Assembly: GCA_964481805.1 (NCBI GenBank)
Contig: CAYZVE010000001.1
Location: forward strand, 13,192 to 39,052
From: an uncultured archaeon
Lineage (GTDB): Archaea; Aenigmatarchaeota; Aenigmatarchaeia; CG10238-14
Length of the DNA: 25,861 nucleotides
Reading direction: 5' to 3'
This document shows, piece by piece, positions 1,240-24,258 of this stretch; positions within the stretch are counted from its first letter, which is position 1, and every line of letters begins with the position of its first letter. Below the pieces are notes generated by a model that saw nothing but the letters and a program-made list of their open reading frames with translations, searched no databases and was not told the DNA's origin. Position numbers and translations under genes: made by a program.

Positions 1240-1911
1240 TTAGTAAACTCCTCGTATCAAATCTTCCAAAACTATCTTTGGATCCCTTGATTTAACAACA
1301 GCTGAGGCAACTATAACCCCTTTTACACCAAGTTCAATAGCTGTTTTAATATCCTCACCAGTAGAGATTCCCGCACCACATAGTGGTATAATTTCAGGAT
1401 CAATATTACTAACAATCTCAACAAAGTTTTTAACGGAATTAGGCTTTATTTTTGATATAGCCCTGCCAGTTCCTATCAGTTCTGGGATTTCATATGCAAT
1501 AAAATCCGGTTTAAATTTTGCAATTTTTTTTGCTAATTCTATTTCTGGTGTGCAAATAACTGTTACTAATTTATTCCTTTTTGCAATATCAATGCTCCGT
1601 TTTATTTCTTCTAGGTTTAATCTATTTTCTGAGTGGTTTATAAGTGTGCCAACCGCACCAGCTTTTTTTGCAGCTAGCGCAAGTTCATGACCAGTGTAGG
1701 CTCCTGGCTCAATAGGTTCAATACTTTGTGCAAATATAGGAATTTTTAATTCCGAACTTATACGAAAAATATCAGCGTCTTGAGGTGCTATTGTAATATT
1801 AACACCATGTTTCTCTGATAATTGTTTGCAAATTCTTGCAATTTTAAGTGCATTATCACCCGTCCCTTCAGCATAACTTTTAAAATTAACTATAATCAAT
1901 GGAAGTTTCAT
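1240..1911 (-). CDS. tpiA: Triosephosphate isomerase, archaeal type
   Basis: Catalytic motifs VNFK, NHSE and AYEIPELIGTG, plus GAGI; 223 aa; 4-bp ATGA overlap with fba. Confidence 0.97.
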   Translation of the reverse strand: MKLPLIIVNFKSYAEGTGDNALKIARICKQLSEKHGVNITIAPQDADIFRISSELKIPIFAQSIEPIEPGAYTGHELALAAKKAGAVGTLINHSENRLNLEEIKRSIDIAKRNKLVTVICTPEIELAKKIAKFKPDFIAYEIPELIGTGRAISKIKPNSVKNFVEIVSNIDPEIIPLCGAGISTGEDIKTAIELGVKGVIVASAVVKSRDPKIVLEDLIRGVY

Positions 1912-2678
1912 TTTTTAACCTCATGGATAATCTTCCTAACCTCTTTTAGTATAAAAGCCCCATTTTCTTTTCCCCAAACATTCCTTCCAACAGCCATGCC
2001 AGCTGCACCTGAATCCATGACATCCTTTACCATTTGAAAAAATTCTGAATCGTCTCCTTTTATTTCTCCCCCAGCAACAGCAATAGGAACAAAATTAGAA
2101 TATTTAACTACTTTAGAAAAGGTCTCCTTTGAACCGGTATAATAGGTTTTAACTATATCTACACCCAATTCTGCCCCAACTCTAGCAGCATACCTTACAA
2201 GATTTGGATCATTCTTCTCTTTCCCTTTAACTCTTGGGTACATAAACCCTATTAATGGCATCTCTCTCTTTAAACACTGTTCTTTGATTTCACAAAGATT
2301 TTCTAGCATTTTATCTTCATTTTCAGAGCCGACGTAAACTGTGCATGCAACTCCAATTGCTCCTATGATTTCAGCTTCTTTAACTGTTGATGTGACTGTT
2401 TGTATCCTTTTTTGTGACAAGTCTGTCCTCCCAGTAACTTTTATTATCAGCGGCAATTTCCTATTGAATCTTCTCACATATCTTGCAGAACCAGGATGCA
2501 ATATCAAGCCATTAACATTTCCTTCGCAAGCAATTTTTGAAATTCTAAGCGGATCTAAATTTATTCCTTCATACCTATCGGGACCATGTTCTACGCAGTG
2601 ATCAAAAGCCATAAGGAGAGTTTTTTTTGTTTTCGGGTTTATTATTTTATCCAATCTTTTTTGTTTCTTACTAAACAT
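1908..2678 (-). CDS. fba: Class I (archaeal DhnA/FbaB-type) fructose-bisphosphate aldolase
   Basis: AFDHCVEHGP, MYPR, Schiff-base VDIVKTYY, AGG and GRNVW motifs. Start placed at ATG 2678, preceded by AAGGTGG (ORF track extends to 2693). Confidence 0.92.
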   Translation of the reverse strand: MFSKKQKRLDKIINPKTKKTLLMAFDHCVEHGPDRYEGINLDPLRISKIACEGNVNGLILHPGSARYVRRFNRKLPLIIKVTGRTDLSQKRIQTVTSTVKEAEIIGAIGVACTVYVGSENEDKMLENLCEIKEQCLKREMPLIGFMYPRVKGKEKNDPNLVRYAARVGAELGVDIVKTYYTGSKETFSKVVKYSNFVPIAVAGGEIKGDDSEFFQMVKDVMDSGAAGMAVGRNVWGKENGAFILKEVRKIIHEVKK

Positions 2679-3633
2679 TAGACCACCTTTCAATCAAATT
2701 AATTATATCTTTTTCAGAAGGTAAATCTTTCGTTGCACCGATACTTTCTATATTTAATGCAGCGGCAGCATTACCAAATTTTAAAGCATCCTCAAAAGAT
2801 TTTCCCTTCATGAACCAATGTAAAAAACTGGCAGTAAAACTATCACCAGCGCCTGTGGTATCTTTTATCTCGCTTTTAAAAGGCTTCATCTTATAAAGTT
2901 TATTTCCGTCAGAAGCTATCAATCCTTTTTTTCCCAATGTAATAATGGCTGACTGAACGCCAAAACCCAATATTCTTTTCAAGGCCTTTTGTTCATTTTT
3001 AGTATTCATTAATTCGCAAATTTCTTCTTTATTCATTATTGAAATATCGCATTTCCCCATCAAACCCAGCAACTCTTTCTTCCTATATTTAATCATATTT
3101 ATACTTGGATTTGCCAATACCTTTCCACCATTTTCTTTTATTATCCTAATGACCATTCTAACAGCATCCAAACTTTTGTCACTAATGACAGTGGTGAAAA
3201 TAAACCACTTTGCATTTTTAATATATTTCTCCGATATGTCATCCGAACCTAAGCTATCATTCGCCCCCCTAAATGTTAAGATACTTCTCTCTCCGTCTGG
3301 TGTTATAAAAACCTGAGAAAACCCTGACATAACATTTTCACTTTTTTTGAGGAATCCTATATCTACCCCTTCTGCCTTAAAATTATTACTTATTAACATG
3401 GAATTTGGATCAGAGCCAACCTTTCCAATAAAACCAACCTTACTCCCTAACTTAGACAAACCTACAGCAACATTATGGCCAGAACCACCAACATTAAATT
3501 TCAGCCCTTCTAATTCTGTTTTCGTGCCAAAGGGAAACCCTAAAAACTGTTTGCGTTTTGACCTAATATTTCTTAATCTGCTGCTATGAATTACAACATC
3601 AACCATTACTGACCCAATAACTACAACATCCAT
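2671..3633 (-). CDS. PfkB/ribokinase-family sugar kinase 1 (candidate ATP-dependent phosphofructokinase or fructokinase)
   Basis: GGSGHNVAVGLSKLG and DTTGAGDSF PfkB signatures; overlaps the fba start, so co-transcribed with fba-tpiA. ATG 3633 is more likely than GTG 3642. Confidence 0.9.
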   Translation of the reverse strand: MDVVVIGSVMVDVVIHSSRLRNIRSKRKQFLGFPFGTKTELEGLKFNVGGSGHNVAVGLSKLGSKVGFIGKVGSDPNSMLISNNFKAEGVDIGFLKKSENVMSGFSQVFITPDGERSILTFRGANDSLGSDDISEKYIKNAKWFIFTTVISDKSLDAVRMVIRIIKENGGKVLANPSINMIKYRKKELLGLMGKCDISIMNKEEICELMNTKNEQKALKRILGFGVQSAIITLGKKGLIASDGNKLYKMKPFKSEIKDTTGAGDSFTASFLHWFMKGKSFEDALKFGNAAAALNIESIGATKDLPSEKDIINLIERWSNV

Positions 3634-22971: not shown

Positions 22972-22989
22972 ATTTTGGTGTTGATTTAG

Positions 22990-24258
22990 ATAAAGGATTT
23001 TCAGACAATTGATGATTTTGATTTTAAGGGAAAAACGGTCATATTAAGGGTAGATATAAACTCTCCTGTATCTAAAAAAGGCAAAGTAGAAGTATCTGAA
23101 AGGATAATTGAATCATCAAAAACAGTTCGAGAACTTTCTGACAAAAAAGCAAGGGTTGTCATACTTGCACATCAGGGGAGAAATGGAGACCCAGATTTTG
23201 TTCATTTAAAACAGCATGCTAAAATTTTAACTAAATATTCCAAGAAAAAGGTCAAATTTGTGAATGATATCATTGGAAAAAAGGCTGTTAAAAAAATTAA
23301 AAAATTAAAAGATGGTGAAATTATTCTTCTAGATAATGTGAGGTTATTGGATGAAGAATCTGTAGAAAAAAAACCAGAAGAACATTCTAAAGGGCTGTTG
23401 GTTCAAACATTAGCTCCATTGGCTGATTTTTTTGTCAATGACGCTTTTTCTGCTTCCCATAGATCGCATGCTTCTTTGGTTGGATTTACTTCAATTATGC
23501 CTTCTTTGGTAGGGAGATCAACCGAAAATGAAATCAAATCAATAAGAGGAGTTATTGAAAAAATGAAAACCTCAAAACATGATACTTTTATTCTTGGTGG
23601 GGCAAAACCGGATGAACCTTTGAATATAATGGTTCATATGTTAAGTGAAGGGACTTTGGAAAAAGTACTAGTTTCTGGGGTAATAGGAAATTTATTCTTG
23701 ATTGCTTATGGTTATGATCTTGGGAAACCAACAATGAAGTTGCTTAAACAAAATGGTTATCTAGACTACTTACCTCAAGTCAAAGAACTGTTAAAAAAAT
23801 ATAAGAGCAAAATAATAGTTCCGTTGGATGTATCCATAGAGGTGAACAAAAAAAGGAAAGAAATTCTTGTCGAAGAACTCCCAGTTGATTCACAAATAAT
23901 GGATATAGGAACCAGAACTATTGAAAAATACACTGAAATAATAATGAAATCAAAGAATATTGTAATGAAAGGTCCTGCTGGTGTGTATGAAAAGAGGGGA
24001 TTTGAAATGGGGACAAGAAAACTCTTGGAATCTATAAAAGCCTCAAAAGGAGTTTCATTAGTTGGTGGAGGACACACTCTAAGTGCACTAAATAACCTTA
24101 AGATTGATAAAAATGGTTTTTCTAATGTTAGCCTTGCTGGGGGAGCTTTGATTATATATCTATCTGGAAAGAAATTGCCAGCACTAGAAGCGCTCAGAAA
24201 CTGTGTAAATAATGATGCCTCAATCAATAAAAGATGTTCGCCTAGGGAAATTGATTAA
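22990..24258 (+). CDS. pgk: Phosphoglycerate kinase, 422 aa; probable non-canonical ATA start (track ORF 23260-24258 is N-terminally truncated)
   Basis: Frame open from 22990: IKDFQTIDDFDFKGKTVILRVDINSP...AHQGR, then LLDNVR, DAFSASHRSHAS, LGGAK, GGGHT, SLAGGA; in-frame TAG at 22987. Confidence 0.93.
   Translation: MKDFQTIDDFDFKGKTVILRVDINSPVSKKGKVEVSERIIESSKTVRELSDKKARVVILAHQGRNGDPDFVHLKQHAKILTKYSKKKVKFVNDIIGKKAVKKIKKLKDGEIILLDNVRLLDEESVEKKPEEHSKGLLVQTLAPLADFFVNDAFSASHRSHASLVGFTSIMPSLVGRSTENEIKSIRGVIEKMKTSKHDTFILGGAKPDEPLNIMVHMLSEGTLEKVLVSGVIGNLFLIAYGYDLGKPTMKLLKQNGYLDYLPQVKELLKKYKSKIIVPLDVSIEVNKKRKEILVEELPVDSQIMDIGTRTIEKYTEIIMKSKNIVMKGPAGVYEKRGFEMGTRKLLESIKASKGVSLVGGGHTLSALNNLKIDKNGFSNVSLAGGALIIYLSGKKLPALEALRNCVNNDASINKRCSPREID

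Follow-up and report, generated by a model that had tools for sequence, protein, structure and literature searches.

An intact block of glycogen and Embden-Meyerhof genes in an Aenigmarchaeota contig exemplifies a widespread neighborhood of the phylum

The window studied here, i.e., the whole 25,861-bp stretch of contig CAYZVE010000001.1 (assembly GCA_964481805.1) that was analyzed, carries a block of glycogen and Embden-Meyerhof-Parnas (EMP) genes. Our results indicate that this block is an intact, unusually complete example of a gene neighborhood that is widespread in Aenigmarchaeota, and not a new kind of system. It probably represents a native, vertically inherited “glycogen hub” that works in both directions between glycogen and the triose/phosphoenolpyruvate (PEP) level.

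Gene Content and Conservation of the Block

Between 1240 and 24258, 19 genes were recognized from the listing of open reading frames (ORFs) and from Pfam and NCBIfam (Table 1), 17 of which belong to alpha-glucan or Embden-Meyerhof families; an earlier note on this DNA had counted about 18 of 20 consecutive genes, which agrees well. The two remaining genes encode a DUF2180 protein and a MinD-like ATPase. If carbohydrate genes are assumed to make up 3% of the genome, a share that we consider generous, the binomial probability of finding at least 17 of them among 19 consecutive genes is ~2e-24. TIM, GAPDH, and PGK score above their cut-offs, and the aldolase falls 2 bits short of the cut-off of the ADH-synthase/FBA subfamily. 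Overlaps (-4 to -23 bp) and short gaps define seven carbohydrate transcription units. These units and the minD-like gene are grouped about four divergent promoter regions, which measure 97, 44, 71, and 179 bp.

A synteny survey across DPANN and other archaea, as the earlier note had proposed, revealed that the block is real and recurrent in Aenigmarchaeota and that its core is distributed more widely. About 100 Aenigmarchaeota loci were collected (L001-L003, L007, and L089-L174). The independent genome GCA_964392445.1 (L002 and L089) contains, in its left part, TIM, FBA, PfkB, PPS, GH57a, and SIS; in the middle, GH57b, GT4, DUF2180, GH15, PfkB, and PGM; and in its right part, GT3, GalT, GDE, an ORF of 158 aa, GH57c, MinD, enolase, and iPGM, a phosphoglycerate mutase (PGAM). 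The order from TIM to MinD is common to this genome and the window, and each shared gene is 61-76% identical. This uniform identity indicates that the whole block was inherited together. The sole large difference is that enolase-PGAM takes the place of GAPDH-PGK. An insertion between PfkB1 and FBA in this closest sequenced relative (L089, 14945-15609) consists of a toxin-antitoxin-like HEPN/nucleotidyltransferase pair, which splits the operon that overlaps in the window.

In L097 the left arm is repeated, and in L001 enolase and an apgM of the archaeal type come after the GT3...MinD segment. The mutases behind enolase are not homologous, i.e., apgM (PF10143) in L001 (8551-9765) vs. iPGM (PF06415) in L002 (18911-20437), a swap which is a local non-orthologous replacement. 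A lineage at ~57% GT3 identity (L003, L093, L094, L101, L107, L113, and L118) possesses (enolase, iPGM, and a four-subunit NiFe hydrogenase), GAPDH, PGK, a fructose 1,6-bisphosphate (FBP) aldolase/phosphatase, and PPS, and then GH57a, GH57b, GT4, GH15, PfkB, GT3, a divergent GalT-like gene (24% identical, HPHxQ retained), GDE, and MinD. The hydrogenase of this sister lineage is located between iPGM and GAPDH-PGK-FBPase-PPS (L094, 3715-7622; L118, 1-1122) and comprises large, small, NAD-binding/FeS, and ferredoxin-like subunits with hypC adjoining; this linkage suggests that H2 production is tied to sugar fermentation there. GAPDH-PGK, in some cases with TIM and/or FBPase, adjoins GH57a/GH57b-GT4 in L127, L135, L143, L159, and L172, as do PGK, TIM, and FBPase in L126, and the glycogen core occurs alone in L007, L091, and L098. 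Gene tables for the relatives' loci list no pyruvate kinase (PK).

Homologs of GH57b, surveyed in the best 80 of 145 metagenome stretches (48-75% identity), are almost always followed by GT4. Among the 29 loci of at least 15 kb with a GH57b homolog, GT4 was present in all 29, GH57a in 26, GH15 in 20, PfkB2 in 17, PGK in 16, DUF2180 in 13 (after GT4), MinD in 11, FBPase in 9, and PPS in 8. The position of PfkB1 is kept in L089 and L097 and the SIS gene in L002, L097, and L098, while PfkB2 adjoins GT3 in L002, L003, L007, L091, and L093; GH57c is 66-80% identical in L001, L002, and L007. Linkage to EMP genes is, in various permutations, common in public Aenigmarchaeota contigs. The clustering is a trait of the lineage, in which subsets of the EMP/gluconeogenesis genes have accreted around the core and have been shuffled.

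A related neighborhood was encountered in peat and wetland loci (L124, L125, L137, L138, and L148). One of these contigs (L148) measures 2.46 Mb, and a genome of at least this size is too large for a typical DPANN archaeon. These loci carry two GH57b-like genes (50-53% and 24%), three GT4-like genes, GH57a (46%), and GH15 (58%), and in the two for which the gene order was printed, L124 and L148, PGK lies ~5 kb away.

The Glycogen Core Beyond Aenigmarchaeota

Beyond the phylum, genome contigs were surveyed with an alignment-based GT3 search, whose listed matches included distant DPANN, Candidate Phyla Radiation (CPR), Planctomycetes-Verrucomicrobia-Chlamydiae (PVC), and Bacteroidota sequences and no Aenigmarchaeota; a single-sequence GT3 search of genome contigs gave zero matches. 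Among the matches listed, GT3, GH57a, and GT4 (plus GalT and GDE) occur together in Woese-, Nano-, Nanohalo-, and Altiarchaeota and in CPR bacteria, the core is also found in Paceibacterota and Azambacteria loci, and the GT3 gene is solitary in Planctomycetota and Bacteroidota. GH57a and GT4 are co-conserved with GT3 in at least ~25 DPANN and CPR loci; many loci of these two groups have GH57a homologs of 40-47% identity adjoining GT3 and GT4. GT3 and the GalT-like gene are adjacent in L002, L007, L017, L022, L024, L027, L028, L035, L036, L038-L041, L045, and L047.

The core itself is not new. A GT3-centered glycogen operon was reported for the CPR bacterium RAAC2/WWE3 (Kantor et al., 2013; PMC3812714), and Cifuente et al. 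(2024; Chem Rev, PMC11046441), who regard archaeal GT3 synthases as confined to DPANN and Euryarchaeota and as uncharacterized, depict the archaeal glycogen gene arrangement and count the functions of GT4 and of the GH57 “amylase” among the points still to be settled. Descriptions of the glycogen core (GT3, GalT-like, GT4, GH57, and GDE) thus date from 2013 and 2024. La Cono et al. (PMC7443923) regard the storage of glycogen, together with gluconeogenesis, as a hallmark of DPANN. According to Li et al. (PMC8407114), most metagenome-assembled genomes (MAGs) of Aenigmarchaeota have pps and lack an annotated phosphofructokinase (PFK), glucokinase, and PK, and GlgP is present in only one of them. 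Full-text searching of the literature yielded no description of a linkage of glycogen and EMP genes. The possibility, raised at the outset, that this gene order is already common and described is thus borne out for its occurrence, as the same or a permuted order is common in relatives, and for the published core, but not for the EMP linkage, of which no description was found.

Proposed Role of the Block

From the enzyme families encoded in the block we infer a set of activities that would link glycogen with lower glycolysis in both directions. For synthesis, PGM would interconvert glucose 6-phosphate (G6P) and glucose 1-phosphate (G1P), and the GalT-like HIT enzyme, a candidate for the formation or recycling of nucleoside diphosphate (NDP)-glucose, would make or recycle the glucosyl donor; it is located where one would look for a pyrophosphorylase, of which none is present in the window. 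GT3 would elongate the chain. The GT4/5-like enzyme, a candidate second glucan synthase or primer-forming enzyme, may prime or secondarily elongate it with DUF2180 as its zinc partner. Branching would be performed by a GH57 enzyme, most probably GH57a, because it accompanies GT3 and GT4 in different phyla and retains the invariant Glu and Asp, and because a knockout of the GH57 “amylase” of Sulfolobus loses glycogen; that gene behaves anabolically, possibly as a branching enzyme, in the mutant study summarized by Cifuente et al. (PMC11046441).

For mobilization, GH133, the domain-minimal GH15, and a GH57 would hydrolyze glycogen to glucose in the cytoplasm, PfkB2 would phosphorylate glucose to G6P, the SIS protein would isomerize this to fructose 6-phosphate (F6P), and PfkB1 would turn F6P into FBP, which would be processed by the class I FBA, TIM, and then GAPDH and PGK. 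PPS may connect PEP and pyruvate in either direction. PGAM and enolase would be encoded elsewhere in the genome; in the closest relatives both occupy the GAPDH-PGK site. When the enolase of the relative was used to look for this organism's own enolase-PGAM, the best non-self match (83% identical; L092, with enolase and iPGM) came from another run and is, therefore, not attributable to this organism. PfkB2 is read as the glucose kinase because it is co-operonic with GH15 and PGM, and PfkB1 as the phosphofructokinase because it overlaps FBA in an operon with TIM. These operon contexts fit the steps that had been assigned earlier to the PfkB and SIS proteins, although every NCBIfam match is far below its cut-off and the Protein Data Bank (PDB) sequence matches do not distinguish between substrates.

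Several observations weigh against this reading of the block as a hub. For PfkB1, PfkB2, SIS, the aldolase, PGM, and GT4, no specific function reaches its NCBIfam cut-off, so that their steps are assigned from gene context alone. No FBPase is present in the window, which leaves gluconeogenic flux to glycogen unproven here. No operator common to all promoter regions was found, and because these regions share only AT-rich promoter-like words, co-regulation is not demonstrated. Furthermore, the stretch was present in none of the RNA runs.

The earlier note had proposed a self-contained route from glycogen via glucose to PEP/pyruvate, drawn in the catabolic direction, with the GH57 enzymes on the way to glucose and PPS at the exit. 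On this view the block would be dedicated to one-way catabolism and all GH57 enzymes would be hydrolases. The presence of GH133, GH15, and three GH57 enzymes with no phosphorylase in the window, the two PfkB kinases in suggestive operons, and the fact that this lineage has PfkB1 and FBA and not the FBP aldolase/phosphatase of other lineages are all consistent with such a route. So are the absence of PK from most Aenigmarchaeota MAGs and the role of PPS in Thermococcus kodakarensis, where, according to work cited by Li et al. (PMC8407114), it is essential for glycolysis. In the same operons, however, GT3, the GT4/5-like enzyme, the GalT-like enzyme, and PGM are interleaved, with GT3 co-operonic with the debrancher, which argues against a purely catabolic function. 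At least one GH57 is more likely anabolic, as GH57a is co-conserved with the synthases across phyla and its Sulfolobus homolog behaves anabolically in the mutant study mentioned above. PPS is normally gluconeogenic, and the relatives have the FBP aldolase/phosphatase beside it. FBP aldolase/phosphatase is a strictly gluconeogenic enzyme. The PfkB kinases, moreover, yield ADP, while a glycolytic PPS needs AMP. Nor does the window suffice for the whole route, since it lacks PGAM and enolase, as well as a step from PEP to pyruvate. We consider one-way catabolism, therefore, unlikely.

The negative observations of the earlier note, by contrast, were confirmed. No phosphorylase (PF00343), phosphoglycerate mutase, enolase, FBPase, or PK was found in the ORFs scanned, i.e., the 20 main ORFs of at least 80 aa, the 72-aa DUF2180 ORF, and three flanking ORFs (24274-24543 and 24568-25860 by NCBIfam; 24274-24543 and 2-565 by Pfam), with overlapping ORFs on the opposite strand excluded. 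The hydrolases indeed lack an evident signal peptide: none of the 12-mers among their first 45 residues exceeds a Kyte-Doolittle value of 1.23, and no 19-mer resembles a transmembrane (TM) segment. Because the window lacks a phosphorylase and the hydrolases lack signal peptides, cytoplasmic, purely hydrolytic mobilization by GH133, GH15, and GH57 is plausible and the simplest reading, but it is not new, since it has been documented in Sulfolobus.

Alternatively, the hydrolases could scavenge exogenous alpha-glucans outside the cell, with the block serving as a polysaccharide-utilization locus. DPANN archaea live attached to hosts, and in “Ca. Nanohalobium” GDE, a GH57-type amylase, and GH15 are part of the secretome, while the co-culture grows on starch and glycogen (PMC7443923). 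In the window, by contrast, all five hydrolases lack signal peptides and TM segments, and an N-terminal hydrophobic segment or TM helix was found in none of the 19 proteins of the cluster. Neither the window nor the loci of the relatives encode a transporter or a solute-binding protein, and the hydrolase genes share operons with cytoplasmic synthases and kinases. This explanation thus seems quite improbable.

That the supercluster is an artefact of a chimeric contig, or a recently acquired foreign island, has a negligible likelihood: it could be supposed for a metagenome assembly at a place where four Logan assemblies all break (6132-6173), and from the local gene replacement implied by the different PGAM types of close relatives (apgM in L001, iPGM in L002), but the depth is even in four runs with other break points unlike, JGI contigs bridge 6132-6173, the gene order is repeated in the independent genome at a uniform 61-76% identity, and the GC content is uniform (0.30-0.38 throughout the window). 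The stretch occurs in 24 DNA runs, all of them groundwater or aquifer metagenomes, and the Logan contigs of four groundwater runs tile the window at an even depth (~13-15x in X1) with differing break points; one contig of 16.5 kb spans 9386-25861. The shared break at 6132-6173 is a 40-bp spot within the 3' end of GH57a, where a 68-bp unitig has a depth of 21 vs. ~14, and probably reflects strain variation or a short repeat. It is spanned by the JGI contigs L004 and L005 from two other samples. The nearest named GT3 homologs, at 71-73% identity, are labeled Candidatus Aenigmarchaeota/Aenigmatarchaeota. A chimeric contig, which the earlier note had named as a ground for refutation, is excluded by the tiling, the JGI contigs, and the gene order of the independent genome, and the explanation as a whole is refuted as far as the present data allow.

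The neighborhood is of interest since reconstructions of DPANN metabolism repeatedly result in an “incomplete glycolysis,” in which the gaps of Aenigmarchaeota are PFK, glucokinase, and PK (PMC8407114). The conserved neighborhood places two PfkB kinases, the SIS protein, and the GalT-like enzyme at missing steps and thus provides concrete candidate enzymes. It is rather unlikely that PfkB1 is the missing ATP-PFK, PfkB2 the missing glucokinase, the stand-alone GlmS-like SIS protein the missing phosphoglucose isomerase (PGI), the GalT-like enzyme a means of supplying or recycling the GT3 donor with no pyrophosphorylase, and MinD, which shares an operon with a GT4-like gene in other lineages, a dedicated factor for positioning or partitioning glycogen granules or the glycogen machinery, all jointly; if true, non-canonical parts would complete the supposedly incomplete sugar metabolism of Aenigmarchaeota. 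The gene set is also suited to asking what primes GT3 when glycogenin is lacking and what branches its product in place of a classical branching enzyme, a question that the 2024 review lists as open (PMC11046441). The main value of the block is as a guide to candidates for steps that are annotated as “missing” in DPANN.

Individual Genes

Table 1. Genes and transcription units of the block (positions in the window) and MinD-like genes of relatives (positions in the locus named).
Feature	Position	Strand	Support and remarks
Triose-phosphate isomerase (TIM), archaeal type	1240-1911	-	PF00121 1e-34; NF003302 276.5 bits vs. cut-off 132; last gene of its unit, 4-bp overlap with FBA
Class I (DhnA/archaeal-type) aldolase, FBP aldolase (FBA) by context	1908-2678	-	PF01791 5.6e-41
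PfkB-family sugar kinase 1 (PfkB1), candidate ATP-phosphofructokinase	2671-3633	-	PF00294 5.3e-60
Phosphoenolpyruvate synthase (PPS; pyruvate, water dikinase)	3740-6004	+	NF005057 956 bits vs. 598; TIGR01418 921 vs. 740; three Pfam domains
GH57a, “alpha-amylase-like” GH57, candidate branching enzyme or amylase	6017-7546	-	PF03065 1.2e-74
Stand-alone double-SIS protein, GlmS isomerase domain-like, candidate phosphoglucose isomerase	7585-8721	-	PF01380 4.5e-11; bact-PGI_C 1.1e-4
GH57b, divergent GH57	8766-10064	+	PF03065 2.4e-16; first gene of its unit
GT4/GT5-like retaining glycosyltransferase (GT4)	10078-11262	+	PF00534 1.7e-34; Glyco_transf_5 3.6e-15; glgA_Coryne 102.9 bits vs. 302
DUF2180 Cys/His-rich zinc protein, 72 aa	11259-11477	+	PF09947 3.8e-9; start overlaps GT4 stop by 4 bp
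GH15 glucoamylase-like, catalytic (alpha/alpha)6 domain only	11469-12533	-	PF00723 3.4e-14
PfkB-family sugar kinase 2 (PfkB2), candidate glucokinase	12530-13462	-	PF00294 1.6e-46
Phosphoglucomutase/phosphomannomutase family (PGM)	13465-14817	-	four PGM_PMM domains; first gene of its unit
GT3 (eukaryote/DPANN-type) glycogen synthase	14889-16736	+	PF05693 1.4e-115, residues 11-607
GalT-like HIT-family nucleotidyltransferase, DUF4921-related	16729-17721	+	PF01087 6.1e-14; PF02744 2.8e-11; DUF4921 2.5e-9
Archaeal-type glycogen debrancher (GDE; amylo-alpha-1,6-glucosidase, GH133)	17711-19630	+	GDE_C 6e-98; GDE_N 1.5e-68; TIGR01561 448 bits vs. 364
GH57c, third GH57 paralog	19758-20993	+	PF03065 1.3e-36
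MinD/ParA-like ATPase, archaeal	20990-21760	-	TIGR01969 180 bits vs. 202; PF10609, PF01656
Type II (archaeal, phosphorylating) GAPDH	21940-22971	+	NF003251 426 bits vs. 185
Phosphoglycerate kinase (PGK)	22990-24258	+	PF00162 4.1e-76 for the part from 23260, profile positions 87-379
Unit PfkB1-FBA-TIM			overlaps 23 and 4 bp
Unit PPS			single gene, divergent from PfkB1
Unit SIS-GH57a			
Unit GH57b-GT4-DUF2180			
Unit PGM-PfkB2-GH15			
Unit GT3-GalT-GDE			overlaps 8 bp (GT3/GalT) and 11 bp (GalT/GDE); GH57c 127 bp behind
Unit GAPDH-PGK			
MinD-like gene, L126	17240-17953		
MinD-like gene, L143	16349-17083		
MinD-like genes, L168	18504-19211 and 19303-20061		

To the left of the block is a helix-turn-helix (HTH) regulator gene; to its right, an ORF of 89 aa precedes an S-layer-like gene. 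Neither a tRNA nor an Rfam family was detected in the window. The longest ORF of the aldolase extends to 2693, while the JGI gene call gives 256 aa. In NCBIfam, it reaches 238.9 bits for the ADH-synthase subfamily (cut-off 241) and 209.5 bits for the archaeal class I FBA (cut-off 430), and it is read as FBA because it overlaps both TIM and PfkB1. For both PfkB1 and PfkB2 all NCBIfam models remain below cut-off; the PDB matches of the former are generic members of the ribokinase family and those of the latter are likewise generic. NCBIfam matches of the SIS protein are all far below cut-off and its top PDB entries are annotated as “putative phosphosugar isomerase.” PGM scores 408 bits with Arch_GlmM (439) and 389 bits with PgmG (600), and because these scores are below the cut-offs, the hidden Markov models leave its specificity unsettled.

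GH57a retains the invariant E157 (NTE) and D259 (DYETFGEH), its PDB similarity being weak (profile 1e-6 vs. 1k1w). A PDB sequence search with GH57b gave zero matches, and GH57c has weak local PDB matches to a GH57 amylase, a 4-alpha-glucanotransferase, and branching enzymes; as for PfkB1, PfkB2, and SIS, the PDB sequence matches leave the specificity of the three GH57 enzymes unresolved. GT3 shares 58 invariant columns with 29 DPANN homologs, among them E503 in a conserved block of the YEPWG type. The GalT-like protein retains the HPHSQ motif and scores 114 bits with TIGR00209 (cut-off 102). The conservation of DUF2180 equals or exceeds that of its enzyme neighbors (75% identity in L002, 67% in L007). 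GH15, at 354 aa, covers positions 253-608 of the 616-position model TIGR01577, the usual N-terminal domain being missing; the GH15 proteins of relatives are likewise 342-354 aa long.

The start of pgk deserves comment. The first ATG/GTG/TTG is located at 23260, and a start there would delete the N-terminal domain. The frame is open from an ATA at 22990, directly after a TAG; the stop-to-stop ORF starts IKDFQTIDDFDFKGKTVILRVDINSP, and the upstream stretch codes for a normal PGK N-terminus (…FKGKTVILRVDINSP…). Positions 22987-22992 show zero variants across the four run assemblies. Because these independent assemblies agree, a genuine non-canonical AUA or AUU start is favored over a sequencing error and is probably used.

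Promoter Regions

The intergenic blocks PGM/GT3 and SIS/GH57b and the one 5' of GH57c are kept in relatives. Between PGM and GT3 (14818-14888), TTTTGAAAAGAAATACGTTAAGTTTAT forms a conserved non-coding block that is partly tandem-duplicated in L002, and TTCACTACTYTATAGTAAT, a short inverted repeat that is conserved in L001 and L002, immediately precedes a TTATATA box in front of GH57c (19631-19757); both are candidate promoter or operator elements. Three other candidates were rejected. The words shared between promoter regions (AAGAAATA etc.) lie 21-38 bp from minus-strand start codons and look like generic AT-rich promoter elements and not a specific operator. The “TATCAC”-like words, considered as a glycolytic motif of the Thermococcales type, are in our reading Shine-Dalgarno-type GTGAT beside start codons. 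The neighboring HTH regulator finds no support as regulator of the cluster, its TGTCGA sites being absent from all cluster promoter regions.

The MinD/ParA-Like ATPase

The MinD-like ATPase is a recurrent neighbor of the glycogen core. In the window, as in L001, L002, L003, L093, L107, and L118, its gene is convergent with the GT3 operon and faces the end of the latter. In L126, L143, and L168 a second GT4-like gene of the same orientation precedes it, with gaps of 7-18 bp, and in L024 (8854-9612) it is located directly upstream of GT3. No link between MinD and glycogen was found in the literature; a 2026 preprint describes ParA fused to a glycogen-binding carbohydrate-binding module (CBM) in bacteria.

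Comparison With Known Systems

The closest counterparts are the GT3 operons of RAAC2/WWE3 and of archaea, which, like the window, combine a predicted GalT, GT3 and GT4/5-like synthases, GH57, and an amylase/debrancher-like gene. In contrast to the DPANN/CPR GT3 operon, the core in the window is split into divergent units, and EMP genes (PfkB1-FBA-TIM, PPS, and GAPDH-PGK) border it on either side. It also possesses two additional GH57 paralogs, GH15, SIS, a second PfkB, and the MinD-like gene.

Sulfolobus performs glycolysis through a branched Entner-Doudoroff pathway. As proposed for the window, it degrades glycogen hydrolytically with GH15 and GH133: in the S. acidocaldarius mutant study summarized in PMC11046441, both act catabolically on intracellular glycogen and GlgP is dispensable. 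It uses a GT5 GlgA, whereas the window has GT3, and that review describes no linkage between the glycogen and EMP genes of Sulfolobus.

“Ca. Nanohalobium constans” (PMC7443923) resembles the window in being a DPANN archaeon with a GT3-type synthase, GDE, a GH57-type amylase, GH15, and PEP synthase, and it has archaeal gluconeogenesis and glycolysis. Its three hydrolases are extracellular and feed the host, whereas the window shows no sign of export, and no single supercluster is described for it in PMC7443923. In the nanohaloarchaeal loci L030 and L033, TIM, GAPDH, and PGM are found near GT3.

The ORFs scanned in the window contain no NTP_transferase, GH13, or GT35 domain according to Pfam, and glgA models reach at most 70 bits vs. 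cut-offs above 300, apart from glgA_Coryne on the GT4/5-like enzyme (102.9 vs. 302). The glg system of E. coli consists of GlgC, a GT5 GlgA, the GH13 enzymes GlgB and GlgX, and a GT35 GlgP, and its glycolytic genes are unlinked to glg. As in the window, synthetic and degradative glycogen genes share one neighborhood in E. coli (glgBXCAP), where this mixture implies that control is largely post-transcriptional/allosteric.

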